Numbered from the stretch's first letter, positions 15,051-63,543 are shown. The stretch is 64,000 nucleotides of DNA from Candidatus Brocadiia bacterium JP1 (GCA_051388875.1 JBMFFR010000002.1:283940-347939); one strand, 5' to 3'. Notes: a model not told the origin generated them from the sequence alone. Numbers and translations are program-made.

Positions 15051-15075
15051 ATCCTGCTGCACCATTTATCATTTG

Positions 15076-22812: not shown

Positions 22813-23480
22813 GCAGTAGGGTGCGTCAGGACGCACCGGTTATCAATCGCGGTGTGTGTTGCACGCATCTTACAAAGCTATAGAAAAAGGTAAGCCTCCC
22901 TCACCTTAATCCTCTCCCAGGTGGGGAGAGGAAGATAAATGGTGCGTTGCTCGCACCCTACAAAACTTCCGAGTAGATAAGAGATTGCTTCTCCGCCTCA
23001 GGCGGATTTGGACAGGCACGGAGGCCTGCCCCTACTTTCGGACAGGCATCCGCCTCAGGCGGACACTACATGACTTCGGCAACAGCCTCATACATTTCAA
23101 ATTTCAAATTTTGATATGGAGTTCAGCTTGCCTTAGGCGGATCGCTGGGAATTTCTTGGAGTCTGGTACTCCTCAGGCAGATGTCTCTACTATAAATTCC
23201 CATTGACATGGTTAATGGACTCCAAAAGATTTTGCCCTCCCCCTTGAGGGGGAGGGGAGGGAGGGGGTGGGTTGTGGAATTCGGAATTCAGAATGAAAGA
23301 TGATAAATGGCTGGTTCAATCCGCAAGATTGAACCAGATGGGGTGGGAGAAAGAAAATCCCCCTCGCCTCAATCCTCTCCCCGATGGGGAGAGGAAGAAG
23401 GTGGGGTGTTGCGGCGTGGCGTCTCTTTAATGGAGAGAGGAAATAGAGAGATAAATCACAAAACTACCCGTGAGGTAGTA
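22813..23480. repeat. Non-coding region made almost entirely of dispersed hairpin repeats
   Basis: Family B lies at 22816-22837 (inverted) and 22940-22966. Family A (CCTCTCCC-N4-GGGGAGAGG) lies at about 22908-22935 and 23371-23398. The palindrome TCCGCCTCAGGCGGA lies at 22992-23006 and 23049-23063. CCCTCCCCCTTGAGGGGGAGGG lies at 23236-23258. Confidence 0.8.
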
Positions 23481-26073: not shown

Positions 26074-26312
26074 CCTCTAGGATTTTTTCCCTTACTGGCT
26101 TGATTAAAGAGTCCCCGACATAGCACCCTAAAACAAGGTGAGAAAAATGGTAAGTTTTGCCCCCTTCTCCCCTGACGAGGGGAGAATTCTTATGAGCATC
26201 CTTTAAGCGTTTTAGTATACTGATTTTCAAAACTTGCAAGTTTTAAAATAATTGATTTTTGGGTATAATTTTTTTGCTACAAAGAGACACAATTTCAGGT
26301 ATGGAAGGGAAG

Positions 26313-29290: not shown

Positions 29291-29392
29291 GAGGCACTAG
29301 AGGACGAAAATGTAAATAAATTCTTGGATGGTAAGAAGGTGGTGAATATAATTCTGGTGCCGAGGAAATTATTAAATATTGTGGTAAAGTGA
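29291..29392 (+). repeat. Copy 2 of the leuS 3' end (orphan)
   Basis: It encodes EALEDENVNKFLDGKKVVNIILVPRKLLNIVVK* in an intact frame and begins immediately after the relE stop. Differences from copy 1 are mostly synonymous. Confidence 0.9.
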
Positions 29393-30084: not shown

Positions 30085-30104
30085 ATTCCATGAATAGTCA
30101 TACA

Positions 30105-30194
30105 GATAAACGTATAAGTAAGTTTCTGGATGGCAAGAAGGTGGTGAATATAATTCTGGTGCCGAGGAAGCTGGTGAATATTGTGGTGAAATAA
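30105..30194 (+). repeat. Copy 3 of the leuS 3' end (orphan)
   Basis: It encodes DKRISKFLDGKKVVNIILVPRKLVNIVVK* with the frame intact. Confidence 0.9.
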
Positions 30195-46056: not shown

Positions 46057-47307
46057 TCAGGGCTTATAAAAAGCGTGGCAGGTCATGCATGACCCGGTGC
46101 CGGCAACATACGCACGCACTGTGAAGGCATTGCCACCTGCGGTAGTTTTGGTATAACCAGCCGCAAAGACCCTGCTCCCATCAGGGCTTACCGCCACTGC
46201 CATTGCTCCATCATGAAGGTTTCCTTCCCTGTCGTAGTGCTGTGTCCACAACACTGCCCCGTTAGAGGCATCATATGCACGCACTGTGAAGGCATTGCCA
46301 CCTGCGGTGGTTTGGGTATAACCAGCCGCAAAGACCCTGCTCCCATCAGGGCTTACTGCCACTGCCTTTGCCTCATCCCCCAGGGACCCTTGCCTGTCGT
46401 AGTGCTGTGTCCACAACACTGCCCCGTTAGAGGCACCATACGCCCTCACTGTGAAGGCATCGCCACCTGCGGTGGTTTGGGTATAACCAGCCGCAAAGAC
46501 CCTGCTCCCATCAGGGCTTACTGCCACTGCTTCTGCCACATCATTCTTATTTCCTTCCCTGTCGTAGTGCCTTCCCCATAACAGTGTCCCGTTAGAGGCA
46601 CCATACGCCCTCACTGTGAAGGCATCGCCACCTGCGGTGGTTTGGGTAAAACCAGCCGCAAAGACCCTGCTCCCATCAGGGCTTACTGCCACTGCCATTG
46701 CTCTATCATAAAGGGTTCCTTCCCTGTTGTAGTGCTGTGTCCACAACACTGTCCCGTTAGAGGCATTATATGCACGCACTGTGAAGGCACCACCTCCTTC
46801 GGCAGTTTGGGTCTGACCTACGGCAAAGACCCTGGTGCCGTCAGGGCTTACTGCCACTGCATGCGCATAATCATCCATGTTTCCTTCCCTGTTGTAGTGC
46901 TGTGTCCACAACACTGCCCCGTTAGAGGCATTATATGCACGCACTGTGAAGGCATCGCCACCTGCGCTGGTTTCGGTACTACCAGCCGCAAAGACCTTTG
47001 TCCCATCAGGGCTTACTGCCACTGCATACGCATAATCATACTTGTTTCCTTCCCTGTCGTAGTGCCTTGTCCACAACACCGTCCCGCTAGAGGCATTATA
47101 CGCCCTCACTGTGAAGGCACCACCTCCTTCGGCAGTTTGGGTCTGACCTACGGCAAAGACCCTGGTGCCGTCAGGGCTTACTGCCACTGCATGCGCATAA
47201 TCATTCTTGTTTCCATCCCTGTCATAGAAGTCTTCCCACCCGAAGACAGGGAGGACGGGAAAGTAGAGGAATAAGATTACCGAGATAATTAGTCTGTCCC
47301 ACTTCAT
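46057..47307 (-). CDS. Secreted beta-propeller repeat protein (SBBP-like), 7 tandem 55-aa repeats
   Basis: A signal/anchor sequence is followed by 7 units of A.AVAVSPDG.RVFA.G.T.T..GG.AFTVRAY.AS.G..LW..HY.REG. The 165-bp DNA repeats are highly similar. Confidence 0.8.
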   Translation of the reverse strand: MKWDRLIISVILFLYFPVLPVFGWEDFYDRDGNKNDYAHAVAVSPDGTRVFAVGQTQTAEGGGAFTVRAYNASSGTVLWTRHYDREGNKYDYAYAVAVSPDGTKVFAAGSTETSAGGDAFTVRAYNASNGAVLWTQHYNREGNMDDYAHAVAVSPDGTRVFAVGQTQTAEGGGAFTVRAYNASNGTVLWTQHYNREGTLYDRAMAVAVSPDGSRVFAAGFTQTTAGGDAFTVRAYGASNGTLLWGRHYDREGNKNDVAEAVAVSPDGSRVFAAGYTQTTAGGDAFTVRAYGASNGAVLWTQHYDRQGSLGDEAKAVAVSPDGSRVFAAGYTQTTAGGNAFTVRAYDASNGAVLWTQHYDREGNLHDGAMAVAVSPDGSRVFAAGYTKTTAGGNAFTVRAYVAGTGSCMTCHAFYKP

Positions 47308-47649: not shown

Positions 47650-47836
47650 TTTTCCCCCCTCTAAAAAGAGTAGATAAAGGGGTGTGTATTTTTATAGCGA
47701 AAGAGAATGTAGTCTATTAAGAATGTAGAATGTAGGGACAAATCCCCAGAGCCTGCCCTGATCCGCCTGAGGCGGAGAAGGGTCTGTCCATTGAGAACAT
47801 AGGAAATTCTGGACAGGTCTAAAGAGCTGTCCCTAC
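47650..47836. repeat. Family A and family C dispersed repeats
   Basis: CCCCTCTAAAAAGAG..AAAGGGGTGTGTA lies at 47657-47690. GTAGGGACA...TCCGCCTGAGGCGGA...CTGTCCCTAC lies at 47732-47836. These match 15201-15300. Confidence 0.75.
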
Positions 47837-47849
47837 ATTGCTTTGAACC

Positions 47850-48586: not shown

Positions 48587-49747
48587 TTAATACCCATAAA
48601 CCAGAATAATCGGAACCCCCCCTGTCACTATGTACCCGCTATCACTAGTCTGCTGGATGGAACTAGCTAGCCCACTGCCCTCAGAACCACCGTAGCTCTT
48701 CTGCCACTGGACGTTACCACCAGAATCAAGCTTCAATACCCAGAAGTTAGCAGAATATATATTGAAGAAGGCGGTATACCCTGCCACTATGTAGCCCCCA
48801 TCAGTGGTCTGCTGGATGGAATGGGCATACTCATTACTAGTAGGACCCCCGTAGGCCTTCTGCCACTCTACGTTACCATCAGAGTCAAGCTTCAATACCC
48901 AGAAATCAGCTGGTCCACCGACACCGAAGGACTTGGACCCTGCCACTATGTAGCCCCCATCAGCGGTCTGCTGGATGGAATGGGCATTATCATAACTAGG
49001 ACCCCCGTAGGTCTTCTGCCACTGGACATTACCGTCTGAGTCCAGCTTCAATACCCACATATCATTATACCCATCACCGAAGGAGCCGGTACCCCCTGCC
49101 ACTACGTAGCCCCCATCAGTGGTCTGCTGGATGGAATTGGCAGACTCACCGCCAGAACCCCCGTATGCCTTCTGCCACTCCACGTTACCACCTGAATCAA
49201 GCTTCAATACCCAGAAGGCCCTCCCTCCAGCACCGAAGGAGGTGGTAGACCCTGCCAATATGTAGCCCCCATCACTGGTCTGCTGGATGGAACCGGCATA
49301 CTCGTGTCCAGAACCCCCGTAGGCCTTCTGCCACTCTACGTTGCCATCAGAGTCAAGCTTCAAAACCCAGAAATCATAAAACCCTGCACCGAAAGACCAG
49401 GTATACCCAGCCACTATGTACCCGCCATCCCTGGTCTGCTGGATGGACTCGGCAAATTCATAACCAGAACCCCCGTAGGTCTTCTGCCATTCCAGATTGC
49501 CACCTGAGTCAAGCTTCAATACCCAGATATCCCAAGCCCCGCTGCCGAAGGAGTAGGTATAACCTGCCACTATGTAGCCCCCGTCCGTGGTCTGCTGGAT
49601 GGAACTGGCATTAGCATAGCCAGAAACCCCGTAGGTGGCGGCCCACTGGGCATAAGAGGGAGGGGCAATAATCGTGCAAAGCAATAGGGAAAACAGCAGT
49701 AAGATTGAGACCTTGCTAGAGGTGGTTTTCATGTCCTTTGCCTCCAC
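48587..49747 (-). CDS. Secreted beta-propeller-type repeat protein, 7 tandem ~51-aa repeats; N-terminal portion of a gene split at a G7 tract
   Basis: A signal peptide is followed by 7 units of YGGSG.E.A.SIQQT.DGGYIVAG.T.SFG....DFWVLKLD..GNV.WQK. The seventh unit is cut by a frameshift at the homopolymer 48616-48622. Confidence 0.75.
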   Translation of the reverse strand: MEAKDMKTTSSKVSILLLFSLLLCTIIAPPSYAQWAATYGVSGYANASSIQQTTDGGYIVAGYTYSFGSGAWDIWVLKLDSGGNLEWQKTYGGSGYEFAESIQQTRDGGYIVAGYTWSFGAGFYDFWVLKLDSDGNVEWQKAYGGSGHEYAGSIQQTSDGGYILAGSTTSFGAGGRAFWVLKLDSGGNVEWQKAYGGSGGESANSIQQTTDGGYVVAGGTGSFGDGYNDMWVLKLDSDGNVQWQKTYGGPSYDNAHSIQQTADGGYIVAGSKSFGVGGPADFWVLKLDSDGNVEWQKAYGGPTSNEYAHSIQQTTDGGYIVAGYTAFFNIYSANFWVLKLDSGGNVQWQKSYGGSEGSGLASSIQQTSDSGYIVTGGVPIILVYGY

Positions 49748-50803: not shown

Positions 50804-52051
50804 TCAGTATTCTACCCTCTTTACCCCGCTTGGATGCCAGGCAGGGGATATGACGCCTGGGCCTGTGGCAGGCTCCAGTAACATCCCCCTGGTAACAGTA
50901 AACTCCCCGTATCTGTCGTTAATGGAATCTATGGCATGGGTAAGTTCTCTTTTTCTCTGGTCTTTCTCAAATAGGGGCAGTTGCTCTACCTTGACTAGAT
51001 TACTCATGCTTACCCCTACCATCCTCACTGCTTGCTTTAACCTGAAAGACCTCAGTATGAACATCGCAACGTGGCATATCTCAAGTCCATCGTTCAAATA
51101 CTCCCTTATGGTTTTCTGCTTTGAGACGGTAAAGAAGTCTGAGTATCGTACGGTAAGGGTAACCGTCCTGCCCCGGTAGTGTCCATGTCTGAGTCTCCTT
51201 GCCACCATTTCAGAGAGTAGAAGGATGTAACGTTCAAGGGTCTCATGGTCGTAAATGTCTCTCTCTAAGGTCATGCTGTGGCCAACGGATTTGGCGTCTG
51301 GTTCTTGGCCTAGTGGTATTACAGGGCTATCATCAAGTCCCTGGGCCATAAGGTGAAGTCTCTCTCCTATTACGCCGAATCTATCCTTCAGGTCTCTTGG
51401 TGGAGTCCTTGCCAATTCTCCGCATGTCCTTATACCCATCTCTAAGAGGTGTTTTTCTAACTGTGCTCCTACACCTACCAGGTCTCCTACTGGTAGGTCT
51501 TCAAGGATAGCCTCTGCCTTCTGGTGGTCTTGTATTACCACAAGGCCATCGGGCTTTTGCATATCGCTTGCCAGCTTCGCCAGGAGCTTATTAGGGGCAA
51601 TGCCTATGGAGCAAGTGAGGCCAAAGAGTGCCTTAATCTGACGCTTTATCTCAGAGGCCATTAGCTTCGCTTCGCTCACTACACGGTTTATAGACCCGTG
51701 AAAGAGGTGGGCTGTGCCTGTTACGTCCAGGAAGGCTTCGTCCACTGAGTAAACTTCTACTAGTGGCGTGTACTGCTTATAGAGTTCAACAAGGCGGGTG
51801 CAGGTGTCAATATAGCGTGAGTTGTGGGCCTGGACAAATATAATCTCTGGACATAGCCTCTTTGCCTCTCCCCTGGTCATGCCTGTCTTTACTCCGTAGG
51901 CCCTGGCCTCGTAGGAGGCGGTGGTAATGATAGTCCTCTTTTGAGAGCCTGTAACGGCTATGGGTTTGCCCCTGAGCCTTGGATTTACCTGTTGCTCCAC
52001 AGAGGCGAAGAAGGCGTTCATGTCTATGTGCATAATCACTCTGTAAGGCAT
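50804..52051 (-). CDS. dinB: Y-family DNA polymerase IV
   Basis: It has IMHIDMNAFFASVEQ, SVDEAFLDVTG and the palm/fingers/little-finger order. Confidence 0.9.
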   Translation of the reverse strand: MPYRVIMHIDMNAFFASVEQQVNPRLRGKPIAVTGSQKRTIITTASYEARAYGVKTGMTRGEAKRLCPEIIFVQAHNSRYIDTCTRLVELYKQYTPLVEVYSVDEAFLDVTGTAHLFHGSINRVVSEAKLMASEIKRQIKALFGLTCSIGIAPNKLLAKLASDMQKPDGLVVIQDHQKAEAILEDLPVGDLVGVGAQLEKHLLEMGIRTCGELARTPPRDLKDRFGVIGERLHLMAQGLDDSPVIPLGQEPDAKSVGHSMTLERDIYDHETLERYILLLSEMVARRLRHGHYRGRTVTLTVRYSDFFTVSKQKTIREYLNDGLEICHVAMFILRSFRLKQAVRMVGVSMSNLVKVEQLPLFEKDQRKRELTHAIDSINDRYGEFTVTRGMLLEPATGPGVISPAWHPSGVKRVEY

Positions 52052-52053
52052 GA

Positions 52054-52305
52054 CTAACCCTCTATCTCCACCTGGGCAAGCTCCCAGACGCAGGATTCTG
52101 TATTGTAGCGTAGCTCATATAGGTTAGCCCCATCTGTAACAGAGAAATGGTATATTACAGCCCTACCCTGACGGCTAGTCCATGTGTAGGTTATGGACTG
52201 TATGCGGTGCTGTTTACCCTGCCACTTGAACCATACGGGCTTAATCTTCCTGCCATTTCCAAAGACTACACCCACCTTAACGGGCTCATTGATAGGGGTA
52301 ATCAT
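52054..52305 (-). CDS. Hypothetical 83-aa protein embedded between lexA and dinB
   Basis: There is a 4-nt gap after the lexA stop and a 2-nt gap before the dinB start. I recognise no family. Confidence 0.6.
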   Translation of the reverse strand: MITPINEPVKVGVVFGNGRKIKPVWFKWQGKQHRIQSITYTWTSRQGRAVIYHFSVTDGANLYELRYNTESCVWELAQVEIEG

Positions 52306-52309
52306 AATA

Positions 52310-52951
52310 CTACCCTCCTCTAAAGGGCTTTAAACTCCCCTCTATACGCCTGAGAACTGCTACCACTTTGCCTACTATGGAGACGTCAGACTGTCCTGCC
52401 TTAATCACCACAGGCTTATACTCAGGATTGGCAGGCTCAAGCCTTATCTCTCTGCCCTTTCTATAGAACCTCTTTACAGTGGCCTCACCATCCATGAGGG
52501 CTGCCACTATATCCCCATTTTCGGCAGTGGGCCTGGGTTTTACCACCACATAGTCTCCGTCCTTTATATGTGCCTCAATCATGCTGTCCCCTTCCACCTT
52601 TAAGAGGAAGTTATCGTCCCCGGAGGTGAAAGACCTATCCACTAAAACGTATCCCTGGACGTCCTCTATGGCTGGTTGTGGTGCACCTGCCTTGATGTGG
52701 CCTACCAGTGGAAGGGTAACTGACTGCCGTGACTTAAGAGAATCACAGAACTCAATGGCCCTGGCCTTGCCTGTCCTTTTTATGTAGCCTTTTTGCTCAA
52801 GGGCAGAGAGGCAGTTCTGTACGGCACTGTGGCTGGCTAGCCCAAGTCCGTCTTTTAGCTCTCTTATACTGGGCGGGTAGCCTTTCTCCCGGATATACTC
52901 CTTCAAGAAAGAAAAGACTCTTGATTGGACCTGGGTTAGGGATTCTCTCAT
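52310..52951 (-). CDS. lexA: LexA repressor (wHTH + S24 peptidase)
   Basis: It has GYPPSIRELKDGLGLASHSAVQNCLSALEQKGYIKR (wHTH), the cleavage region VGHIKAGAP, VEGDSM (Ser) and VGKV (Lys). The ATG at 52951 (MRESLTQ) gives the canonical N-terminus. Alternative starts are at 52969 and 52987. Confidence 0.9.
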   Translation of the reverse strand: MRESLTQVQSRVFSFLKEYIREKGYPPSIRELKDGLGLASHSAVQNCLSALEQKGYIKRTGKARAIEFCDSLKSRQSVTLPLVGHIKAGAPQPAIEDVQGYVLVDRSFTSGDDNFLLKVEGDSMIEAHIKDGDYVVVKPRPTAENGDIVAALMDGEATVKRFYRKGREIRLEPANPEYKPVVIKAGQSDVSIVGKVVAVLRRIEGSLKPFRGG

Positions 52952-52953
52952 AC

Positions 52954-52980
52954 GGTACAAATGTACCATATTATATAAGA
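52954..52980 (-). promoter_or_regulatory. Candidate LexA operator (GGTAC-N4-GTACC) overlapping the lexA promoter
   Basis: The minus strand reads TATAAT-ATG-GGTACATTTGTACC-GT-ATG. The inverted repeat lies at 52954-52967, immediately downstream of a consensus -10 and 2 nt upstream of the preferred start codon. Confidence 0.5.
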
Positions 52981-53596
52981 TTGTCAAGCGGTATTCTACG
53001 AGATAAAGTTTAGCAAGACGTGAGGTGGATTTTCATACCTCTGGCTATCATTTGATAACAGTGACATCATCAATGCCTGTTCACTGGGTGTTGGACGTGA
53101 ATTCACAGGCAGTTTACCCTAAACTCCAACTCCCAATATCGGCAGAAGTTCTTCGGTGGTTTGAGGAGGAGGATAGGCAGTCGGGAGTTTTATCTTGAAG
53201 ACGGTAACCAAATTAACCAATCAGGACAGGACGCTAAAAATAAAGTTAACCCACCCGCCTCAGGCGGGCTACCAGACCACAATAAAACTCTTCAAGATAA
53301 GACTCCTTTCCTACTACCTTACATTCCCACGGGAATTTCAGCCCCTTACACGCACAGCCATTTGAGGTATTCAGTGATAATATCTCGGAGAAAAACGAAG
53401 CAATAATGATCGGTCATACTAGATGGGTAGATGTAGATATAAACCAAAACGTAGTTCTGTCCACCCTAAACATCCTAAGAGTGTGGAAAATATCAGGTAT
53501 TTCTTCTTAGCTTTCAGAGAACAAAAACTTGCCCCTTGGGGAAAACCTTGCACACAGTCCTGTCTCCTGTTATAAATTATTCTTTAAGGCTATTGC

Positions 53597-56500
53597 ATGA
53601 AAAACATGGCTAATACCCCTCCTATCCGCGAAGGTCAGATACTTGAGGGAAGTCTTTTCCCTGAGCCCATGAGGGTAGAGACTGTTCGCCCAAATGGTCC
53701 GGATTCATGGGAAGTCGGCCTCGTCGGTTTAGAGACAGAACGCTTCCGAAAGGTTCCCCTTACGCTTGACCAGATAAAAACCCTCGTAATTCAGGAAATA
53801 AGCCAATCTTACAAAGGTGATGGAGATACTCTCAGGCTTGGTCTCCAGGCATATATGCTTGGAATTGCCTACGAGTTTGACCCCTACTTTGGACTTTCTA
53901 TATCTCGCGTAGACCCCCTGCCCCATCAGCTTGAGGCCGTCTATGACTACCTTCTTAAACTTGCAAGAATTCGTTTCCTGCTTGCAGATGACGCAGGTGC
54001 AGGCAAGACCATTATGGCCGGTCTAGTACTCCGTGAACTTAAACTCCGTGGCCTGGCCGAACGTATCCTGGTTGTTTGCCCCGCCAATCTAACCTTCCAG
54101 TGGCAACGTGAGTTAAAAGAAAAGTTTGATGAAAAATTCATCGTCCTTAAAGGTGATGACATACGAGACCAGTACGGTATCAACCAGTGGATGGAACAAA
54201 AACAAATTATAACCTCTCTGGACCTGGCAAAGAGGGACAAGATTCTACCCGGCCTTGGCCAATGTCATTGGCATTTAGTTGTTGTGGATGAGGCCCACAG
54301 GATGTCCTGGACGCCCCCCTCCCGGAAGACAGAACGCTACGCCCTGGGTGAACTCTTAAGAGAATCCTCAGACCATTTTTTACTCTTAACGGCCACACCC
54401 CACAAAGGAGACCCTGCAAATTTCAGCCTTTTCCTGCAATTATTAGACAAGGATGCTTATGCTAACGTACGCTCCATTCAAGAGGCAATGAACCGTCGTT
54501 ATGCCCCCTTTTACCTCAGACGCACAAAGGAGGCAATGGTATATTTCCCTGAGCGGCAGCCAGACGGTACCTGGGCGGCAACAAAAATATTCAAAAAACG
54601 TATCCCCCGCACAATTAATTTTTCAATAGATGACGCAGAGTTTAATTTATACAGGGATGTTACACGCTTCGTAAAACAGCAAAGTACGAAGGCCGCCGCA
54701 ATGGGGGACGACCCGCAAGCAAGGGCGGTAGGGTTCCTGATGTCCCTCTTTCAGCGCCGCCTTGCCTCCAGCACGTATGCATTGAGACATTCATTAGAAA
54801 ACCGTGCTGATCGCCTCGAAAATAGCTTACGTCAGGCCCGAGAGTTGGCCCAAGTGGCACCGCCCGAACTGCCCACCCCGGAAGAACTGGAAGAAATGGA
54901 AGAGGCAGAACGGGAACGGCTGGAAGAATTCATTGAAGCCGTTACAATTACCAGAGACCCACAACAGATACAGGAAGAAATTGAGACCCTCAATGAACTG
55001 GCAAAGCAGGCCAAAGAGGTAGAAAACTCATGTGTTGAGGAGAAACTCAGCCGACTCAAGCAACTTCTACAAGAAGAAGGCTTTTTTGACCACCCAAATA
55101 AGAGGCTACTGATTTTCACTGAATACAGAGATACACTCAGCTACTTAATAAAAAACCTTAAAGACTGGGGATTCAGAGTGGGATACATCCACGGCGGAAT
55201 GAAACCCGGTTCCCGTGATGAGCCAGGCTCTCGTATCTATTCAGAGCAACAGTTCAAAGATGGTGCATTTCAGGTGCTGGTGGCGACCGATGCGGCGGGG
55301 GAGGGTATTAACCTGCAGTGTTGCCATGTCCTTTTCAATTATGACATCCCATGGAACCCAAATAGATTAGAACAAAGGATGGGACGTATCCACCGCTACG
55401 GGCAAAACAAGGACTGCCTGATATTTAACTTCGTTGCCGCAAATACCATTGAGGGAAAAGTGTTACAAAAACTCCTTGAAAGACTTCAGGAGATACGGGA
55501 CGCCCTGGACGACGATTCGGTCTTTAACGTAGTCGGAGAAATCCTACCCGCCGTCCAAATGGAAACGGTACTACGTGACTACTACGCAGGTAAACTAGGA
55601 GATGCAGACCTTGAGGACCGTATTCTGCGTAATGTAAAAGAGGAAAGGTTCAGGGCAATTTGTCAAAACGCCCTTGAAGGTCTGGCTGCTAAGAAGTTAA
55701 ATCTTGAAATGCTAGTGGAACGCCGTGCAAAGGCACAGGAACGACGTGTAGTCCCAGAGACAATCGCCCGCTTCATGCGAGAATCTGCCCCCCTGGTTCC
55801 TTTCACACTGAAGCCTGTCCCATCCCTGCCCCACACCTTTGACCCTTCACCTACACCACAAATCCTCCGGCGCTACGAAAAAAGTCCAAACTGGAAGCTC
55901 CCAGCCCTTGCAACCAGATACCCGAGGCTTTCTGCTGACAGAGAAACCGCAGAAAACAACAACCTTGAATGGGTAACGCCCGGCCACGAACTCTTTGAGG
56001 CCCTGAGACAACATGCCCATGCAACTGCCCAGGAAGCCTTCACGCAGGGGGCTTGTTTTTATTCTCTGGAACATACCAAACCCTCCAAGCTTGATTTCTA
56101 CAAGGCACGCGTGGTGGATGGACTCGGGCATATTATCCATGAACAACTCTTCGCCATAGAGGTCTCTGAAGATGATGAGCCAAAACTCCGAGAACCTGGG
56201 TTCCTGGGGAACCTTCAACCTGCCAGAGCACCAGAGGTTTTACCTCAGGTTGTTAGTCTACCAGAACCCCGCTCCTGGTTACATGAACAGGCCCTGCAAC
56301 CCTTCCTTGAACAGGCCAGGAAGGAACGCCTGGAGGAAGTGGAGCGTATCAGCAGGCACATTGAACTCTCCCTTACTGAACTCATAGCCCGTGAGGATGC
56401 CCTTATCGGTAGATTTGCAGAGGAGGCCGAAAGAGGGGTGGAAGGTGCGGCAGGCCGTCTGAAGCAGGCAGAAGACCGCCAGGCAGAGTTACTGGATAGA

Positions 56501-57040
56501 CGAGAACGCAGGAGACAGGAACTGGAACGTCAGAAGGCACTCTCACTACAGGCCGTAGAAAGAATCACAAGCGTCCTCATCCTGCCCCACCCTGAACGTG
56601 ATAAGCCAGAGGTACGCCGCCTGAAACCAGACGCAGAGGTTGAGGCAATAGCCATGCAAGTTGCTATTGAATGCGAGAGGTCGCAAGGCCGTGCAGTAGC
56701 AGATGTCCACGAGAAAAACCTGGGATACGACCTCACCAGCCTTGATACAAGAAGCGGTAAACTCCGCCTTATTGAGGTAAAGGGAATTGGTGAGGCCACA
56801 GGAACAGTCCTGCTTACACCCAACGAGAAACGCGTGGCTGAAGACCGCAGGGACTGCTACTGGCTATACGTGGTAACCCACTGCAATACTACACCGAAGC
56901 TACAGGAACCCATCAAAGACCCTGCAAGGCTTAGCTGGCATGAGGTTAAAAAGATAGACCATTACTACATGTCAGTTGATGCATTGACACAGCCAATGGA
57001 GGTGCGGGAAGACTCACCGCCATACGAAGGCAAAACATGA
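53597..57040 (+). CDS. SNF2-family helicase with a C-terminal DUF3883 (PD-(D/E)xK nuclease-like) domain
   Basis: The helicase motifs are LLADDAGAGKT (I), VVVDEAHRM (II), LLLTATPH (III) and QRMGRIHRYGQ (VI). A long coiled-coil region follows. The C-terminus NLGYDL...LRLIEVKG...YWLYVV is typical of DUF3883. Confidence 0.88.
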   Translation: MKNMANTPPIREGQILEGSLFPEPMRVETVRPNGPDSWEVGLVGLETERFRKVPLTLDQIKTLVIQEISQSYKGDGDTLRLGLQAYMLGIAYEFDPYFGLSISRVDPLPHQLEAVYDYLLKLARIRFLLADDAGAGKTIMAGLVLRELKLRGLAERILVVCPANLTFQWQRELKEKFDEKFIVLKGDDIRDQYGINQWMEQKQIITSLDLAKRDKILPGLGQCHWHLVVVDEAHRMSWTPPSRKTERYALGELLRESSDHFLLLTATPHKGDPANFSLFLQLLDKDAYANVRSIQEAMNRRYAPFYLRRTKEAMVYFPERQPDGTWAATKIFKKRIPRTINFSIDDAEFNLYRDVTRFVKQQSTKAAAMGDDPQARAVGFLMSLFQRRLASSTYALRHSLENRADRLENSLRQARELAQVAPPELPTPEELEEMEEAERERLEEFIEAVTITRDPQQIQEEIETLNELAKQAKEVENSCVEEKLSRLKQLLQEEGFFDHPNKRLLIFTEYRDTLSYLIKNLKDWGFRVGYIHGGMKPGSRDEPGSRIYSEQQFKDGAFQVLVATDAAGEGINLQCCHVLFNYDIPWNPNRLEQRMGRIHRYGQNKDCLIFNFVAANTIEGKVLQKLLERLQEIRDALDDDSVFNVVGEILPAVQMETVLRDYYAGKLGDADLEDRILRNVKEERFRAICQNALEGLAAKKLNLEMLVERRAKAQERRVVPETIARFMRESAPLVPFTLKPVPSLPHTFDPSPTPQILRRYEKSPNWKLPALATRYPRLSADRETAENNNLEWVTPGHELFEALRQHAHATAQEAFTQGACFYSLEHTKPSKLDFYKARVVDGLGHIIHEQLFAIEVSEDDEPKLREPGFLGNLQPARAPEVLPQVVSLPEPRSWLHEQALQPFLEQARKERLEEVERISRHIELSLTELIAREDALIGRFAEEAERGVEGAAGRLKQAEDRQAELLDRRERRRQELERQKALSLQAVERITSVLILPHPERDKPEVRRLKPDAEVEAIAMQVAIECERSQGRAVADVHEKNLGYDLTSLDTRSGKLRLIEVKGIGEATGTVLLTPNEKRVAEDRRDCYWLYVVTHCNTTPKLQEPIKDPARLSWHEVKKIDHYYMSVDALTQPMEVREDSPPYEGKT

Positions 57041-58959
57041 TACCCAAAGAATGCAAACGCCTGGCGGAGGTGGATTTCCCGATTGCGGTGGTGAGCAAAC
57101 ATTCGGCACGGGAGAAGTCTATCCGCCATGGACATCCATCTACACTCCATTTGTGGTGGGCAAGGAGACCCCTCGCCGCCTGCAGGGCCATTCTCCTGGG
57201 ACTACTACTGCCCGACCCCGTAGACCCCCATTGCCCTGAGGATTTCAAGACAAAGGCAAGGGAGTTGCTCTCACAGATAGGAGGCACTGGCACCACAGAC
57301 TATGATTTACAGCGGGCACTACTGAAATTCATTGGTGACTTCGCCAACTGGGACAATTCGTCTCATGCAACATATTTAAAGGTATCAAGAGGGCTGGTGA
57401 AGGCCGCTCATGGTGAAGAACCGCCACTGGTGGTTGACCCCTTCGCCGGGGGAGGCTCCGTACCCCTTGAGGCCCTGAGGTTAGGTTGCGAAGCCTTTGC
57501 AAGCGACATTAATCCTGTGGCCTGTCTAATCCTGAAGGTAATGCTGGAGGATATTCCACGTCATGGCCCAAAACTGGCAGAGGAACTCAGGCGTGTGGGT
57601 GCAGAGATCAAAAGAGAGGCAGAAAAGGAACTCGCAGAGTTTTATCCAAGAGACCCTGATGGTTCAACCCCGATAGCCTATTTATGGGCAAGGACGGTCA
57701 GGTGCGAGTCGCCTAATTGCGGTGCAGAAATTCCACTGGTTAGGTCTTTCTGGCTGTGTAAAAAGGCCAATAGGAAGAGGGCATTACGCCCCGTTGTCTC
57801 CCCCCTCACCCCAAACCCTCTCCCTGCGGGAGAGGGAAGGGTGATGGAAATCCCTTCTGTTGACTTTGAGATATTTGAGCCAGAATCTGATAAGGACGTA
57901 CCCAATGGTACAGTAAACCGTGCAAAGGCTACCTGCCTCTGCTGTAGTACCGTCCTTCCACCAGACCGTGTCCGTGCCCAGTTAAGGGAACAAAGGGGAG
58001 GGGCAGATGTGGTCTTTGAACCCTCCCCCTCCGGGGGAGGGAAGGGTGAGGGAGAACCCCCCCTCCCCAAACGCATCAGCGGTGCAAGGCTCCTGGCCGT
58101 GGTTACTCTAAGACCCGGTGAACAGGGCAGACACTACCGCCTGCCTACCGAACAAGATTACCTGGCAGTCTGGAAGGCACAACGCAAGCTCAGGGAAATC
58201 CTGGACGAGTGGGAGCGGGAAGGCAGAAAGGGCCTCTGCCCCGTACCAGATGAGTCAAGCCCGGAAGGTGGAGGGTCCGGTGCTGGGCGAGCTTTCTCTG
58301 TTCGCAAGTACGGCATGAATACCTTTGGGGATCTCTTCATGGCGAGGCAGAAGGTGGGGATGGTGATATTGATAAAGTACACAAAAAAACAGATAAATTC
58401 AGAAGTCACACCTATTCTTGGTCTATTGCTTGGGAAGTCGGCTGATGGTAATAATTCGCTTTCACGTTGGATGGCAGGTTACGAAAATCCGGTAAACCTG
58501 TTTTCTCGTCAAGCGATGCCTATTGTCTGGGATTTTTGTGAATCTACTCCAACTAGTGAAGCTCGTGGAGTCTTTTTAGCCGGCATTTATAGTGCTCAAG
58601 AAGTTATTGATACAAATCATTTCATTGATTCCGGTCAGGTTCAAAAAGTAAATGCTTCTCAAATACTGTTACCTAATGATGCTTGCAATGTTTGGTTTAC
58701 CGATCCACCTTACTACGATGCTATACCTTATTCAGATTTATCTGACTTCTTCTTTGTATGGTTAAAACGAGCTTTGCCAGGTCATCCTCTCCTATGTGAT
58801 CCATTCGATTTGACAAACCCTTTAACGCCCAAGGTGCAAGAAATTGTTCAGGATGAGACTAACAGTTTGATGGGAGGCCAAAAGACAGACAGTTCTTTGA
58901 AGACAGGATGGCCTGTGCCTTTGCTGAAGGACGGAGGATATTACGAGATGATGGGGTAG
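57037..58959 (+). CDS. DUF1156-domain DNA methyltransferase, N-terminal ~2/3 (gene interrupted by a frameshift)
   Basis: DUF1156 N-terminus: DFPIAVVSKHSAREKSIRHGHPSTLHLWWARRPLAACRA. SAM motif I: VVDPFAGGGS. Zn-ribbon cysteines: CESPNC...CLCC. Catalytic motif IV: FTDPPYYDAIPYSDLSDFF. It overlaps the helicase stop by 4 nt. Confidence 0.85.
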   Translation: MIPKECKRLAEVDFPIAVVSKHSAREKSIRHGHPSTLHLWWARRPLAACRAILLGLLLPDPVDPHCPEDFKTKARELLSQIGGTGTTDYDLQRALLKFIGDFANWDNSSHATYLKVSRGLVKAAHGEEPPLVVDPFAGGGSVPLEALRLGCEAFASDINPVACLILKVMLEDIPRHGPKLAEELRRVGAEIKREAEKELAEFYPRDPDGSTPIAYLWARTVRCESPNCGAEIPLVRSFWLCKKANRKRALRPVVSPLTPNPLPAGEGRVMEIPSVDFEIFEPESDKDVPNGTVNRAKATCLCCSTVLPPDRVRAQLREQRGGADVVFEPSPSGGGKGEGEPPLPKRISGARLLAVVTLRPGEQGRHYRLPTEQDYLAVWKAQRKLREILDEWEREGRKGLCPVPDESSPEGGGSGAGRAFSVRKYGMNTFGDLFMARQKVGMVILIKYTKKQINSEVTPILGLLLGKSADGNNSLSRWMAGYENPVNLFSRQAMPIVWDFCESTPTSEARGVFLAGIYSAQEVIDTNHFIDSGQVQKVNASQILLPNDACNVWFTDPPYYDAIPYSDLSDFFFVWLKRALPGHPLLCDPFDLTNPLTPKVQEIVQDETNSLMGGQKTDSSLKTGWPVPLLKDGGYYEMMG

Positions 58960-60131
58960 GTTGTGTGGTATTTGCCCACAAGACCACTGAAGGCTGGGAG
59001 GCCCTTCTAACTGGCATGATTCGGGGTGGCTGGACAATTACTGGTTCCTGGCCCATTCTTACCGAGATGGGAAGTCGCCTCCGTGCCCGTGAATCCGCGG
59101 CCCTTGCTACCAGCGTCCACCTTATCTGCCGCCCGAGGCCTGACAATGCCCCGGTGGGCGATTGGGGAGAGAAACTTCATGAACTTCCCAATCGCATAGG
59201 GGATTGGATGGAGAGGCTCTCTGGTGAGGGCATAAGGGGTGCCGATTTGGTCTTCGCCTGTATTGGCCCTGCGCTGGAATTATTCAGCAAATATTCTAAA
59301 GTAGAAACTGCGGAAGGGCGTACGGTGGAACTGCCCGAATTCCTTGAGAAGGTGTGGGAGGTGGTGGGGCGAACTGCCCTTGGTCAAATACTTGGCACTG
59401 CAGAGGCACGGGCACGCAATAGCGCCGCCGGCGCCCTTGAAGAGGACGCACGCCTCACCGCCCTATTCCTCTGGACACTTCAGTCCACAGAGGTAGGACA
59501 GGCAGGATGCCTGTCACCAAATAACAGCGAGATTGACGAAGGGGAAGAGGCTGAAGAGGAACCAGATGAGGAAGAGGCCCAAAAAAGTAAGGGGAAGAAG
59601 GGCCAGAGCTTGATATTTGATGTGGTACGACGTTTCGCCCAACCCCTTGGTATTCATCTTCAGATATGGGAGGGCCGAATAATTGAGACAGAGAAGGGTA
59701 TTGTGCGTCTGCTATCTGTGAAAGAGAGGGCCAGGCAATTGTTTGGAGAAGACGGGGCCTCTGCCATTGCAGACCAGATAGAACACAGTACGCCGGATCC
59801 CCTACAACAGCTACTCTCCTTTGCTAAAAAAGGGGTTGATGACGTTCCAAGAATCCTGGGCAAGGGCAAGGCCAGGGGTAGAAAGACCGGGACAGGTCTA
59901 GAAAAGGACTTGCAAACAAGGCAAGAAGCTACTACCTTAGACAGGGTGCATGCGGCAATGTTATTACAGGCGAGCGGACGGGCAAACGCACTGAAGGCAC
60001 TCTTAAAGGCAGAGCAACAACGAGGCCCTGATTTTCTAAGGCTCGCCAACGCCCTCTCTGCCCTGTATCCAAAAGATAGTGAGGAAAAACGCCTATTGGA
60101 TGCTATGCTACTGGCCGTGCCTCGTACATGA
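58908..60131 (+). CDS. DUF1156-type methyltransferase, C-terminal ~1/3 (continuation in the -1 frame)
   Basis: This frame is open from 58863 and encodes ..GRPKDRQFFEDRMACAFAEGRRILRDDGVGCVVFAHKTTEGWEALLTGMIRGGWTITGSWPILTE. That is the region that normally follows the DPPY motif in these enzymes. Confidence 0.8.
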   Translation: MACAFAEGRRILRDDGVGCVVFAHKTTEGWEALLTGMIRGGWTITGSWPILTEMGSRLRARESAALATSVHLICRPRPDNAPVGDWGEKLHELPNRIGDWMERLSGEGIRGADLVFACIGPALELFSKYSKVETAEGRTVELPEFLEKVWEVVGRTALGQILGTAEARARNSAAGALEEDARLTALFLWTLQSTEVGQAGCLSPNNSEIDEGEEAEEEPDEEEAQKSKGKKGQSLIFDVVRRFAQPLGIHLQIWEGRIIETEKGIVRLLSVKERARQLFGEDGASAIADQIEHSTPDPLQQLLSFAKKGVDDVPRILGKGKARGRKTGTGLEKDLQTRQEATTLDRVHAAMLLQASGRANALKALLKAEQQRGPDFLRLANALSALYPKDSEEKRLLDAMLLAVPRT

Positions 60132-60192: not shown

Positions 60193-60474
60193 GTGCTTAA
60201 GCGAATCTTGGACCAAATGAAGGATAAGATTCGCAGGCGATTGTATGTCATGACGCTTCATGCTGAAGAAGAAATGAATGAAGATGGTTTGACGATTTAC
60301 GATGTTGAAAGTAGTATTCTCACCGGGGAGATACTTGAACGCCAGAAGGACAGAGTGACTTCAGAATGGAAATACCGAATTAGCGGGCATGCCGTTTCAG
60401 GTGGTAAGGTTGAGGTGATTGTGAAGTTAAGTCCAACTGGCAAGTTGGTCATTATTACTGTTTATATCCCATAA
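60193..60474 (+). CDS. DUF4258-family putative toxin
   Basis: The 93-aa product has LHAEEEMNEDGLTIYDVESSILTGEILE, matching the DUF4258 pattern (H..eRM..r.I....v..vl..G). Confidence 0.7.
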   Translation: MLKRILDQMKDKIRRRLYVMTLHAEEEMNEDGLTIYDVESSILTGEILERQKDRVTSEWKYRISGHAVSGGKVEVIVKLSPTGKLVIITVYIP

Positions 60475-60786: not shown

Positions 60787-63543
60787 ATGGAACCCTGGTA
60801 TAAGGTCGTAACCCCCAGAAAAGAGGTACGAGAGGGAAGGTCATTTAACCCCGATGAGTTTGCCATTGCCTTAGAACAGGTGGTGGCTGGTACTGCCCCA
60901 GAAGACTATAGTAACCCTTCTAAGTTCTTCTCCCGCACCTGCTTCACACGTGCCCTCCGTGAACATACCGGGATGGTGCTCCGCCGCCTATCAGGAAGGA
61001 CAGAGAATGCTGCGCCCGTCTTAATGCTTATCACGCAGTTTGGAGGTGGTAAGACTCACACGTTAACCGCCCTCTACCACATGGTGCAAAATGGAAATGA
61101 ATTGCAGAAGGAAGAGGGTATAAAGAATCTCCTTAAAGAGGCAGGGCTTTCTAGCCTACCGCAGGCAAAGGTCGCCGTCTTTGTGGGAAATGCCTGGGAC
61201 CCACAGGAAGGTCGTGAGACACCATGGGTTGATGTAGCACGACAGCTTGCCGGCGATGCTGGGGTAGCCGTCCTGGGTAAGGCCTCCAGAGAGGTACCCC
61301 CCGGCACTGAAACACTGGGTAATCTCTTTCAGGCTGCGGGTGGCAGGGCCTTAATCTTGTTTGATGAGGTACTAAACTTCTTTAACCGCCACCGCAGTAT
61401 GGCAGAGGGCTTCTACGCCTTTGTGCAGAATCTCACTGTGGCCATGACTGGAAGTAGTCATTGCTCGGCGGTGGTAAGTTTACCCAGAAGTCAGGTTGAG
61501 ATGACGGACTGGGACTTTCAATGGCAGGAGAAGATTACGAAGGTCATAAGGCGGGTGGCCAAGGACCTTATCGTTGCCGATGAGGCAGAAATAAGTGAAG
61601 TGCTCAGAAAACGACTGTTTGAAGACATCGGAAACGAACGGGTAAGGAAGAATGTATCAAGGACCTATGCGGACTGGTGCTTTGAGCGTAGGGCCCAACT
61701 ACCACCTGAGTGGACTGCCGTGGACACTGCCACTACAGAGGCTAAGGCTAAAGAGTTCTTGAGGTCTCAATTTGAGGCCTGTTATCCGTTCCATCCTGCA
61801 ACCCTTTCTGTATTTAGGCGTAAATGGGCCGCCCTGGCTCAGTATCAGCAGACCCGTGGCACTTTAGCCATGCTTGCCCAATGGATTTCCAGGGCGTCTC
61901 AAAAGGGTTCTCGTACAGCCCGCAAAGAACCACTGATTACCATTGGCTCGGCCCCCATGGATGTCCCCGAATTCAGGGCTACCGTTCTGGGACAGTTGGG
62001 TGAGACCCGTCTCGTTCATGCCATAGATGCCGATATAACTGGCACCCAGAGCCATGCAAGGGCATTAGACATAGATACAAAAGGGGCCTTGCGTGACATA
62101 CACTGGCGCGTGGCTGTGGCCATACTCTTTGAATCCTCCGGCGGTCAGGCCGATAAGGTTGCCCATCTACCAGAGCTACGTTTTGCCCTTGGTGAACCAG
62201 AAATAGAGACGACCTCCATTGACAACGCCGCCATTGAACTTGAAAGGAAGGGGTTCTATCTGCGTAAAGTAGGGCCGGATGGCTTTCGTTTCGGTTACAA
62301 ACCCACACTCAAAAAGGTCGTAAATGATAGGCGTGCCTCCCTTGACCCGGAGGAGATAAAAAGAGAGACCAGTGTCATTGTGAGAAAGGAGTTTGGTAAG
62401 GGCACAAGTGTACCTCTGGTCTTCTTTCCCGAAGATGGCACAACCATGCAGGACACCCCGAAACTCACTATAGTAATAATGCACCCCGAAGCCGAATGGG
62501 AAGGAGAGGGGACTACGCGTGTCCGCATAGCCGAATGGACGAGGCAAAGAGGTAAATCCCCTCGCCTTTACCCTGGCTCTCTTATCTGGTGCATCAGGCG
62601 ACCGGGGCGTGACCTCTTTGAGAAGGTAGAGATTTTACTAGCCTGGAAACGTGTGGAAAGGGAACTTAAAGAAGGTATCCTGGGGGGAGAGTTTGAGCGT
62701 TCCGAACGTGCTGAGGTGGAGTCAAAAGTGAGTGATGCGGGTGAGGCAGTAGTGGACGAGGTGTGGGCGAGCTTTCGTTTCGTTGCATTATACGATAGCA
62801 AAGAACCAGACGGTTTAAGGGAAATTAACCTGGGGGCAGGACACGCAAGTAGTGCAGAGACCCTTTGTGGACGCATTATAACTGCCCTCAAGTCTAACCA
62901 ACTATTAAACGAATCCGTTGGTGCAGGCTACATTGAACGCAACTGGCCCCCTGCACTGAAGGAATCCGGTGCCTGGCCCCTTTCAAGCCTCAGGCAGAGT
63001 TTTCTTAATGGGGCACTCACACGGCTCTTGGACCCGGATTCAGTATTGTGTGGGAAGATTATGGGCTTTTTAAGTCATGGGGAGTTTGGACTGGCCTCGG
63101 GAAAGAAACCTGAAGAAGGCTACAACAGGGTGTGGTTCAGTGAGTTAATCTCTCCAGATGATATTCTCTTTGAAGCAGATGTCTATTTACTCACAAAGGA
63201 GAAGGCAAAAAAATTAAAGGCACCATCCGAACCCATTGGGCCAGTGCCAGCCCAACCAGAAAAAGAAGAAAAGCCTCAACAAGCCATTCCAAAAGCCGAA
63301 ACTCCAGTAGAAGAGACAGCTGGCAAGAAAATTGTTTACATAAGGGGCAATATCCCACCAGAATTGTGGAATCGCCTGGGCACAAAGCTTATCCCAAAAC
63401 TAAGGGCAAGTACCAGCGTACAATATGGTATAAACTTCGTCGTGGAACTAGACCTCAAATCAGCCTTAATGCTTAAAGCAGAAATTGACCAGGTTTTGAA
63501 AGACCTCAATTTGTCAGATAGCGTTCATGCAGAAATTAAGTAA
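60787..63543 (+). CDS. DUF499-family ATPase
   Basis: It has the N-terminus MEPWYKVVTPRKEVREGRSFNPDEFAIALEQVV, Walker A TQFGGGKTHTL and Walker B ALILFDEVLNF. Length is 918 aa. Confidence 0.85.
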   Translation: MEPWYKVVTPRKEVREGRSFNPDEFAIALEQVVAGTAPEDYSNPSKFFSRTCFTRALREHTGMVLRRLSGRTENAAPVLMLITQFGGGKTHTLTALYHMVQNGNELQKEEGIKNLLKEAGLSSLPQAKVAVFVGNAWDPQEGRETPWVDVARQLAGDAGVAVLGKASREVPPGTETLGNLFQAAGGRALILFDEVLNFFNRHRSMAEGFYAFVQNLTVAMTGSSHCSAVVSLPRSQVEMTDWDFQWQEKITKVIRRVAKDLIVADEAEISEVLRKRLFEDIGNERVRKNVSRTYADWCFERRAQLPPEWTAVDTATTEAKAKEFLRSQFEACYPFHPATLSVFRRKWAALAQYQQTRGTLAMLAQWISRASQKGSRTARKEPLITIGSAPMDVPEFRATVLGQLGETRLVHAIDADITGTQSHARALDIDTKGALRDIHWRVAVAILFESSGGQADKVAHLPELRFALGEPEIETTSIDNAAIELERKGFYLRKVGPDGFRFGYKPTLKKVVNDRRASLDPEEIKRETSVIVRKEFGKGTSVPLVFFPEDGTTMQDTPKLTIVIMHPEAEWEGEGTTRVRIAEWTRQRGKSPRLYPGSLIWCIRRPGRDLFEKVEILLAWKRVERELKEGILGGEFERSERAEVESKVSDAGEAVVDEVWASFRFVALYDSKEPDGLREINLGAGHASSAETLCGRIITALKSNQLLNESVGAGYIERNWPPALKESGAWPLSSLRQSFLNGALTRLLDPDSVLCGKIMGFLSHGEFGLASGKKPEEGYNRVWFSELISPDDILFEADVYLLTKEKAKKLKAPSEPIGPVPAQPEKEEKPQQAIPKAETPVEETAGKKIVYIRGNIPPELWNRLGTKLIPKLRASTSVQYGINFVVELDLKSALMLKAEIDQVLKDLNLSDSVHAEIK

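Follow-up and report, generated by a model that had tools for sequence, protein, structure and literature searches.

Introduction

BoxC/PIT elements were reportedly described early by Bachellier et al. in the 1990s and by Hoyne et al. in 2000. The repeat is now defined as an intrastrand-triplex motif (BoxC/PIT/TM; TM, triplex motif), which is present in more than 260 genomes of many phyla (Holder et al. 2015, PMC4666352). The consensus in Escherichia coli (TMECO) is CCCTCTCCC-TGT-GGGAGAGGG-CCG/TTA-GGGTGAGGG (Table 1 of PMC4666352). In E. coli K-12, TM is described as "always located intergenically", with five inverted pairs of TM(+) and TM(-) (PMC4666352); the coordinates in Table 1 place the members of one such pair, TMECO 1+2, 16 nt apart. 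TM sites in E. coli have been tied to local genome rearrangement, and no transposase, integrase or other mobility function has been associated with TM (PMC4666352). In this study, we analyzed a stretch of 64,000 nucleotides from Candidatus Brocadiia bacterium JP1 (GCA_051388875.1 JBMFFR010000002.1:283940-347939; hereafter, the window), in which two TM copies are inserted in frame in hmaB, the DNA methyltransferase gene of an Hma defence system. We also show that, in other genomes, TM units bracket genes encoding DUF559 proteins.

In-frame colonisation of genes by palindromic sequences was reportedly documented by Ogata et al. in 2000 for the Rickettsia palindromic elements (RPEs), which are about 100-150 bp long and confined to one lineage, Rickettsia. 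We know of no enzyme gene that goes with RPEs. The elements in the window resemble RPEs in that they are palindromic, lie in frame in an open reading frame (ORF), and are located in a surface loop. Unlike RPEs, TM units are 33-48 bp long and cosmopolitan, and the host of the window belongs to Brocadiales. No sequence relationship is claimed, and the analogy, which had been drawn in a first-pass annotation of the window made from the sequence alone, is valid as a description of how in-frame insertion works. A report on Coxiella also describes MITEs (transposable elements of the miniature inverted-repeat type) inserted in ORFs (PMC5896051), and repetitive extragenic palindromes (REPs) tagged with GTAG or CGTC are treated in a survey (PMC3733652).

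Described Hma defence systems (PADLOC, PMC8565338; Halomonas Hma, PMC11232893) have the gene order hmaA-hmaB-(embedded gene)-hmaC, and the operon in the window likewise has this order with strong profile matches. Unlike the known systems, its hmaB is frameshifted and carries two TM inserts.

Results

Two TM copies are translated in frame within hmaB

The two elements and their host gene are as follows.

57803..57847, + strand: element 1, a four-block TM palindrome, CCCTCACCC-CAAA-CCCTCTCCC-TGC-GGGAGAGGG-AA-GGGTGATGG
58021..58068, + strand: element 2, CCCTCCCCC-TCC-GGGGGAGGG-AA-GGGTGAGGG-AGAA-CCCCCCCTCCCC
57037..60131, + strand: hmaB, encoding a DUF1156 N6-adenine DNA methyltransferase (Pfam DUF1156 and MethyltransfD12; PADLOC HmaB 1e-81 for the first ORF and 1e-22 for the second)

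The gene is split into an ORF of 640 aa at 57037-58959, which holds both elements, and a second ORF at 58908-60131. The core of element 1 is a perfect 9-bp hairpin, CCCTCTCCC-TGC-GGGAGAGGG, at 57816-57836, and that of element 2 is another perfect 9-bp hairpin, CCCTCCCCC-TCC-GGGGGAGGG, at 58021-58041. A regular expression for the three-block TM matched element 1 both as TM(-) at 57803-57836 and as TM(+) at 57816-57847. In element 2, the canonical three-block TM(+) unit at 58021-58052 is followed by AGAA and then by a C-rich tail block, CCCCCCCTCCCC (58057-58068), which resembles the start of an inverted TM(-). Both hairpins are of the polypyrimidine/polypurine type with extra G-rich blocks, and both are translated in frame: element 1 encodes (S)PLTPNPLPAGEGRVM, which reads ...SPLTPNPLPAGEGRVM... 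in the context of the ORF, and element 2 reads ...PSPSGGGKGEGEPPLP... within the same ORF. The hairpins and translations are exactly those given in the first-pass annotation.

With a pyrimidine block, a complementary purine block, a third block similar to GGGTGAGGG, and loops of 1-6 nt, both elements conform to the three-block definition of TM. They share with BoxC/PIT/TM the same blocks and spacing, the dispersed multi-copy occurrence (judged here from the window), and the occurrence as single units or inverted pairs. In E. coli K-12 the repeat is intergenic, whereas the elements in the window lie inside the frame of hmaB; the intergenic location is a property of one species and not of the sequence definition. 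Neither end of the two elements shows a GTAG or CGTC head of the REP type. On the basis of its sequence, the family in the window can be assigned to BoxC/PIT/TM rather than to an anonymous MITE. The earlier description as a MITE/REP-like family was right in recognizing a repeat family, but this family already has a name and lacks the GTAG head of true REPs. No Rfam family scored above its threshold in the whole window, and low-scoring matches in 57600-58300 were dismissed as chance resemblance to GC-rich hairpins.

The motif CCCTCYCCC-N2-6-GGGRGAGGG was found three times in the window and not once in 100 dinucleotide-preserving shuffles. A wider scan for C-rich polypyrimidine hairpins gave eight in the 64-kb window, six between ORFs and two in hmaB, whereas 20 shuffles gave 0-1. 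When folded as single-stranded DNA, elements 1 and 2 had free energies of -15.0 kcal/mol (z -3.9) and -17.2 kcal/mol (z -2.7), respectively; these predictions consider Watson-Crick hairpins only, and the term triplex motif is applied to these copies by sequence.

Both segments are insertions at predicted beta-hairpin tips

The two segments were compared with 120 HmaB homologues of 62-70% identity, in which site 1 could be parsed in 95 proteins and site 2 in 105 (P-labels denote orthologue proteins and L-labels denote DNA loci). Site 1, from ALR to the FEIFEP strand, has 14 residues in 73 of the 95 orthologues compared with 25 in the window HmaB, corresponding to a net addition of 11 residues by element 1. 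Site 2, the loop from GGADxxF to RxGGA, has 5 residues in 90 of the 105 orthologues compared with 18 in the window HmaB, corresponding to a net addition of 13 residues by element 2. Measured against most orthologues in this alignment, both segments are insertions. The alignment stays in register downstream of each insert, indicating that both preserve the reading frame, as had been proposed. In L007 and L008, whose HmaA is the closest one (82% identity), hmaB has no inserts; the exact boundaries are not defined in these mosaic genes.

In an AlphaFold (AF2) model of HmaB, residues 200-390 had predicted local distance difference test (pLDDT) values of 74-91 except in the inserts. Insert 1 was modelled as a loop between strands 248-255 and 274-280 (pLDDT about 52), and insert 2 as a loop between strands 325-328 and 345-349 (pLDDT about 51). 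The Zn-ribbon is formed by C223/C228 and C300/C303; insert 1 lies between the two pairs, and insert 2 about 25 residues beyond them. In the model, therefore, both inserts occupy the tips of beta-hairpins adjoining the four-cysteine Zn-ribbon in the beta-domain of HmaB, in agreement with the surface loops near the Zn-ribbon that the annotation had expected. A sequence search of the PDB found no solved structure of an HmaB relative, and the loop placement accordingly depends on the AF2 model.

A TM unit is stop-free in five of the six frames, which explains how a coding sequence can tolerate it. Its peptides, PSPxGRGxGEG or PLPxGEGRV, are rich in Pro, Ser, Gly, Glu, and Arg, and a translated unit becomes a flexible loop extension rather than breaking the protein. 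Taken together, these findings show that the two segments are genuine BoxC/PIT/TM copies inserted in multiples of three bases, at two beta-hairpin tips of HmaB as modelled.

The host gene is not intact. As read from the DNA, one nucleotide is missing in ccAAAAGacaga (position about 58870-58875), and this deletion splits hmaB into the two ORFs. At this site orthologues have G-x-P-K-D-R-x-F-F-E, the second ORF resumes the orthologous sequence exactly, and HmaB orthologues are unsplit proteins of 984-1084 aa. The frameshift may be a real mutation that made hmaB a pseudogene, or an error of sequencing. An assembly or sequencing artefact, such as repeat-induced misassembly in a metagenome-assembled genome, is scarcely credible as the origin of the inserts themselves. 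Although the source is probably a draft assembly with a contig of 423 kb, and a single-base frameshift within a short run of A could have come from sequencing, the inserts are in frame with flanks that align perfectly with orthologues, and homologous inserts occur at the same site in independent assemblies from other samples.

A comparison of filled and empty sites in L001-L006 revealed no convincing common target sequence or target-site duplication. Template switching was also considered, in which a G-rich native stretch, AGGGGAGGGG, upstream of site 2 could pair with the insert; it was dropped because this stretch is not conserved among the other carriers.

The same two loops of HmaB receive insertions recurrently

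Long insertions across the HmaB orthologues fall mainly at sites 1 and 2. At site 2, TM(+) units were found at an identical F-E|PSP junction in P0058, P0033, P0091, P0087, P0105, and P0052. The same site holds TM(-) in P0041, an unrelated palindrome (HHRDTE...PPWC) in P0022 and P0072, and a PRPQGSG-type element in P0065. Site 1 holds TM units in other frames in P0043, P0013, and P0108, a GTAG-headed REP in L002, the HHRDTE palindrome in L005, and a whole DUF559 domain of 113 residues in P0039, P0052, and P0059; the DUF559 cassette is also present in hmaB of L011. The DNA of six loci confirmed the identity of the inserts in the orthologues with these elements in nucleotide sequence as well, as exemplified by GAA-CCCTCTCCC-TCC-GGGAGAGGG-CA-GGGTGAGGG in L001, and both L001 and L002 have the unit of element 2 at the junction that it occupies in the window. 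These results show that the two HmaB loops are recurrent landing sites across the family.

The DNA-level comparison also bears on the idea that the segments are native low-complexity loops resembling the repeat by chance, which we consider very improbable. A minority of orthologues indeed have similar, Pro/Ser/Gly-rich residues at both positions, but these are TM insertions at the DNA level and not native loops. Furthermore, the short conserved loop is the majority state, the carriers are scattered on the tree, and perfect 9-bp hairpins with a third block fitting a defined consensus would not be expected by chance.

On a neighbour-joining tree, the carriers of TM at site 2 were scattered, with seven changes by Fitch parsimony. 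When only the flanks of site 2 were compared, P0033, P0041, P0052, and P0091 clustered locally, and the window HmaB ranked third for P0058. Because the tree and the local flanks disagree, only insertions differing in type or orientation were counted as certainly independent. The hmaB gene of L007 (L007:3538-6546), as well as that of L008, is mosaic: its N-terminal two thirds have diverged much further than its C-terminal third, which is highly similar, and the overall identity is 51%, which points to module exchange inside hmaB. Since the flanks group some carriers together and hmaB alleles are mosaic, it is likely that TM units at site 2 were partly passed between alleles by recombination.

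The TM-type peptide signature was present in 18 of 120 HmaB homologues and in none of 120 HmaA homologues from the same systems (Fisher test, p = 3.8e-6) or 120 LeuRS homologues, the two control sets; an HmaC set consisted mostly of fragments and was not used. The abundance in HmaB and absence from HmaA could be taken to mean that the inserts are kept because they are useful, either as loop extensions that alter the surface of HmaB (e.g., to evade anti-defence proteins of phages) or as recombination-promoting DNA for the swapping of hmaB modules. The mosaic alleles, the link of TM sites with local rearrangement in E. coli (PMC4666352), and the persistence of the insert between P0087 and P0105 at 84% identity are in line with such a role. 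However, most orthologues manage without inserts, and the same loops hold unrelated palindromes and whole nuclease domains, which argues that the loops are permissive rather than specifically functional; retention for usefulness is, in our view, quite improbable. The recurrence at the two loops would rather reflect the survival under selection of only those insertions that fall at permissive loop tips, and a target preference at the DNA level may be a cause as well.

Two observations on other orthologues were made in the same survey. One palindrome (HHRDTEDTEK...SLCLRGE or HHRDTESTEK...SVPPWC) fills both sites of the same orthologue in L005:2313-2618 (P0072) and also in P0022. In P0112, another HmaB orthologue, a GIY-YIG nuclease domain (PF01541) is nested at a third site, about residue 208.

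TM units bracket DUF559 genes

In L010 (P0059; 10886-11296), the nested DUF559 sequence has a left arm, CCCTCTCCC-TCT-GGGAGAGGG-CA-GGGTGAGGG, and a right arm, CCCTCACCCCAA-CCCTCTCCC-AGG-GGGAGAGGG, which are inverted with their T-containing blocks facing the ORF. A genome scan with an alignment of the nested DUF559 domains and E. coli YcjD as the query yielded 80 best-matching loci (L011-L090, 697 kb) spanning Methylomirabilota, Chloroflexota, Nitrospirota, the Desulfobacterota group, and alpha-, beta-, and gamma-Proteobacteria. A TM-like hairpin was located within 200 nt of the DUF559 match in 79 of the 80 loci, and on both sides in 68. Such hairpins were strongly concentrated, with 187 of 294 falling within the nearest 4.6% of the sequence (binomial p about 1e-170). 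Full three-block TMs occurred upstream in 43 loci and downstream in 44, compared with 54 in total in the other 624 kb. Their orientation was biased: TM(+) outnumbered TM(-) upstream (31 vs 9), and TM(-) outnumbered TM(+) downstream (28 vs 6).

Fifty-two of these loci contain DUF559 as a small free-standing ORF. In 18 of the 80, the open frame extends at least 300 nt to either side, placing DUF559 within a longer reading frame, and all eight nested cases examined with Pfam had host domains on both flanks. The eight hosts were MetRS, a class-III aminotransferase, an HrpA-like helicase, PriA, two Eco57I/MmeI-like proteins, a type ISP protein, and a DUF1156 methylase. Thus, TM units flank DUF559 genes in inverted orientation, and the cassette nests in frame in host genes. 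In the eight nested proteins, Pfam detected DUF559, MTES_1575, and the host domains, and no family of the intein (Hint) type. Because no Hint splicing domain was found, the mature host protein presumably retains the nested DUF559 domain, connected to it by TM-encoded linkers.

The arrangement can be compared with several described systems. As with inteins and homing-endonuclease genes, a selfish nuclease unit would lie in frame in host genes, often those for DNA metabolism or housekeeping, and the host is not inactivated; unlike inteins, the DUF559 cassette has structured DNA repeats as its termini and no Hint domain. The nuclease fold of Vsr-like homing endonucleases (PMC2677866; group 58 of PMC3424549) is like that of DUF559, and the Vsr/DUF559 fold has homing-endonuclease precedents (PMC3424549; PMC2677866). 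With respect to MITEs, TM(+) and TM(-) form inverted arms around DUF559 ORFs, and element 2 is laid out as a pair without an ORF.

In the REP/REPIN-RAYT system (REPIN, REP doublet forming hairpins; RAYT, REP-associated tyrosine transposase), rare "master" copies of an abundant hairpin repeat lie inverted on the two sides of a small enzyme gene, an arrangement to which that of DUF559 and TM is analogous. This flanking by inverted master copies was the argument that linked REPs to RAYTs. The enzymes differ, since the gene flanked by TM belongs to DUF559 (PF04480) with a Vsr/PD-(D/E)XK fold, whereas RAYT is a tyrosine (Y1) transposase of the IS200/IS605 type. To our knowledge, DUF559 is not a transposase, and RAYT units are not found nested in frame within host genes.

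In E. coli K-12, the region examined has a single gene with a DUF559 annotation, ycjD (L009, NC_000913.3 1351200-1351760). Its last codons, CCCTCTCCC-TGA, read ...SPSP*. TMECO no. 9 lies about 170 nt downstream of ycjD, directly preceded by a duplicated fragment of the ycjD 3' end (about 120 nt downstream). While PMC4666352 reports no mobility function for TM, the units found here bracket DUF559 genes; no publication joining DUF559 or YcjD to BoxC/TM was found in the literature searched, and the association appears to be undescribed before.

Origin of the inserts in the window

Based on these results, TM units would be the inverted terminal arms of a small cassette encoding a DUF559 endonuclease (YcjD-like, with a Vsr/PD-(D/E)XK fold). 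This cassette would exist either free-standing between genes or nested in frame in hosts; at least four HmaB orthologues have it at site 1. TM units without an ORF could then be non-autonomous, MITE- or REPIN-like derivatives or footprints of the cassette. Their spread or maintenance would be due to the endonuclease in trans, or else to homing or recombination among alleles that carry TM. Element 2, which consists of a TM(+), four bases, and the start of an inverted TM(-), has the inverted-pair layout expected of a cassette minus its ORF, and it may for this reason be read as an empty cassette, as may the paired BoxCs of E. coli.

Where the two inserts came from can be judged by comparison with the other copies in the window, which are listed below.

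22898..22932, + strand: intergenic TM(-)-type copy, CCCTCACCTTAA-TCCTCTCCC-AGGTG-GGGAGAGGA
23235..23270, + strand: intergenic TM(+)-type copy, CCCTCCCCC-TTGA-GGGGGAGGG-GA-GGGAGGGGGTGGG
23358..23406, + strand: intergenic four-block copy, CCCCCTCGCCTCAA-TCCTCTCCC-CGATG-GGGAGAGGA-AGAA-GGTGGGG
26165..26186, + strand: intergenic hairpin of the same type, degenerate, TTCTCCCC-TGAC-GAGGGGAGAA
47581..47650, - strand: intergenic four-block copy in the opposite orientation (repeat search, I2; hairpin scan; fold)

The intergenic hairpins of the wider scan were at 15267, 22910, 23235, 23373, 26165, and 47605, and the repeat search placed the copies in one family (D5, D15, D18). The relationship that the annotation had proposed between the genic elements and the intergenic hairpins is supported by this grouping and by the scan, except that its copy at 50061 is weak, with a stem of 6-7 bp, and failed the scan. 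The intergenic copies form a diverged subfamily with TCCTCTCCC/GGGAGAGGA stems, 5-nt loops, and an CACCTTAAT spacer, and strict three-block TMs within the window were limited to those in hmaB and at 22898.

It had been suggested that a MITE/REP-like family active in this genome jumped recently from intergenic copies into hmaB, twice; such an origin would involve neither a DUF559 cassette nor inheritance with the gene. The six further family hairpins in the intergenic DNA of the window are in favor of it, as is the similarity of the two genic copies, which are 85% identical over 41 nt and have a common AA spacer where orthologue copies mostly have CA. In addition, the databases contain no close hmaB relative showing an older origin, the next match being 69-70% identical. 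However, the AA spacer is also found in L011, and the genic copies fit the cosmopolitan consensus, in contrast to the diverged local copies. The same unit occurs at the same codon junction in orthologues of unrelated genomes with 61-65% GC, and the GC content of the hma operon (50-53%) exceeds that of the window (about 46-47%). The local jump also leaves its mechanism unexplained, because the TM family has no known transposase (PMC4666352). We therefore regard a recent local jump as unlikely, and an origin of the inserts from an active family of this genome was not established.

The same observations, namely the cosmopolitan type of the genic copies against a diverged local subfamily, the shared junction in distant orthologues, and the higher GC content of the operon, favor inheritance: the inserts more probably came with the hma operon, which is mosaic and horizontally mobile, than arose recently from the intergenic copies of the window. 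The explanation as a whole, in which TM units at loop tips are arms of a DUF559 cassette and were inherited with the hma operon, is in our judgment probable.

Several points weigh against this explanation. Given a star-like neighbour-joining tree and a mosaic hmaB, the count of independent insertions of the same type at site 2 is uncertain. The AF2 model of HmaB is of low overall confidence (mean pLDDT 58). The comparison of junctions revealed neither a target-site duplication nor an exact pair of empty and filled alleles. The 80 DUF559 loci were those that best matched one subfamily and do not sample PF04480 at random, and their link with TM is a correlation, with which homing of a nuclease gene into existing TM sites, or the promotion by TM sites of the capture of a DUF559 gene, fits equally well. 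In element 1, the T-containing blocks are on the outside (C(T)-C-G-G(T)), whereas those of the cassette face the ORF; a cassette at site 1 would thus not have left element 1 behind by simple deletion. A tblastn search found no DUF559 homologue in the 64-kb window. Finally, tolerance of coding insertions, which had been proposed for this genome, is seen in intact orthologues with the same insert (P0058, P0087, P0105, P0041, P0033, and P0091), but in this host it is not demonstrated and cannot be judged because hmaB is frameshifted.

A broader proposal, which we advance more tentatively as plausible but somewhat short of probable, is that TM repeats in general belong to mobile DUF559 cassettes, a class not recognised before, either as their arms or as derivatives that lack the ORF. 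Such cassettes would settle in frame even in essential genes (MetRS and PriA), with their arms translated as linkers; the HmaB loops would be hot spots, and the elements in the window would be footprints.

Taken by themselves, the two inserts extend the documented in-frame colonisation by palindromes to a new host gene. A repeat described as strictly intergenic in E. coli is translated here and in many HmaB orthologues, and this shows that TM, stop-free in five of six frames, is made for read-through. The HmaB loops, taken by unrelated repeats and by nuclease domains, form a natural map of permissive insertion sites, which suggests that defence methylases are favored vehicles or targets of insertion. 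The bracketing of DUF559 genes offers a concrete candidate answer to how BoxC/PIT/TM spread, and one that is testable because E. coli K-12 has ycjD beside a TM. If true, it would parallel the mobilisation of REPs by RAYTs and provide a function for the large DUF559 family.

The hma operon and other features of the window

The other genes of the operon are as follows.

53597..57040, + strand: hmaA, encoding an SNF2 helicase with a NOV_C domain (PADLOC HmaA 9e-171), without a TM insert
60193-60474: gene for a DUF4258 (toxin-like) protein between hmaB and hmaC (Pfam)
60787..63543, + strand: hmaC, encoding a DUF499 AAA+ ATPase (PADLOC HmaC 4e-90; Pfam DUF499)

HmaA, HmaB, and HmaC are co-located as in the definition of the Hma system, with PADLOC and Pfam in agreement. 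In other operons, the gap between hmaB and hmaC holds a DUF4258 and DUF2283 pair (L006) or NYN, HEPN/NTase, or PDDEXK genes. Genes for LexA and a Y-family (DinB/UmuC-type) polymerase lie directly upstream of the hma operon (50804-52987), and no integrase was seen at that edge.

Two more intergenic hairpin families in the window have a GTAG-type head (GGTGCGTTTCACGCACCCTACA; TGGACAG...CTGTCCCTACA). Their copies are located at 15072-15103, 20647-20678, 22848-22879, and 22936-22967, and also at 15234-15262, 23009-23037, and 47810-47838. These GTAG-headed families (including D7 and D14) resemble classical REPs and are separate from the TM family.

LeuRS homologues assign the organism to Brocadiales, with identities of 82% to a 'Planctomycetes bacterium', 72% to metagenome-assembled genomes of Brocadiales, and about 66% to Brocadia, Jettenia, and Scalindua; a fusion of multicopper-oxidase and octahaem regions encoded in the window is consistent with this assignment. 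A 98-nt sequence at the 3' end of leuS (28700-28797) is repeated downstream at 29293-29390 and 30095-30192 with 83% and 73% identity, respectively. Each copy closes a short segment, as if elements had integrated there and duplicated the leuS 3' end. For two beta-propeller-type proteins, at 46057-47307 and 48587-49747, the coding DNA is in near-perfect tandem repeats, the periods being 165 nt and 156 nt, and a protein of 867 residues encoded at 38439-41042 has multicopper-oxidase domains and an octahaem region similar to hydrazine dehydrogenase.

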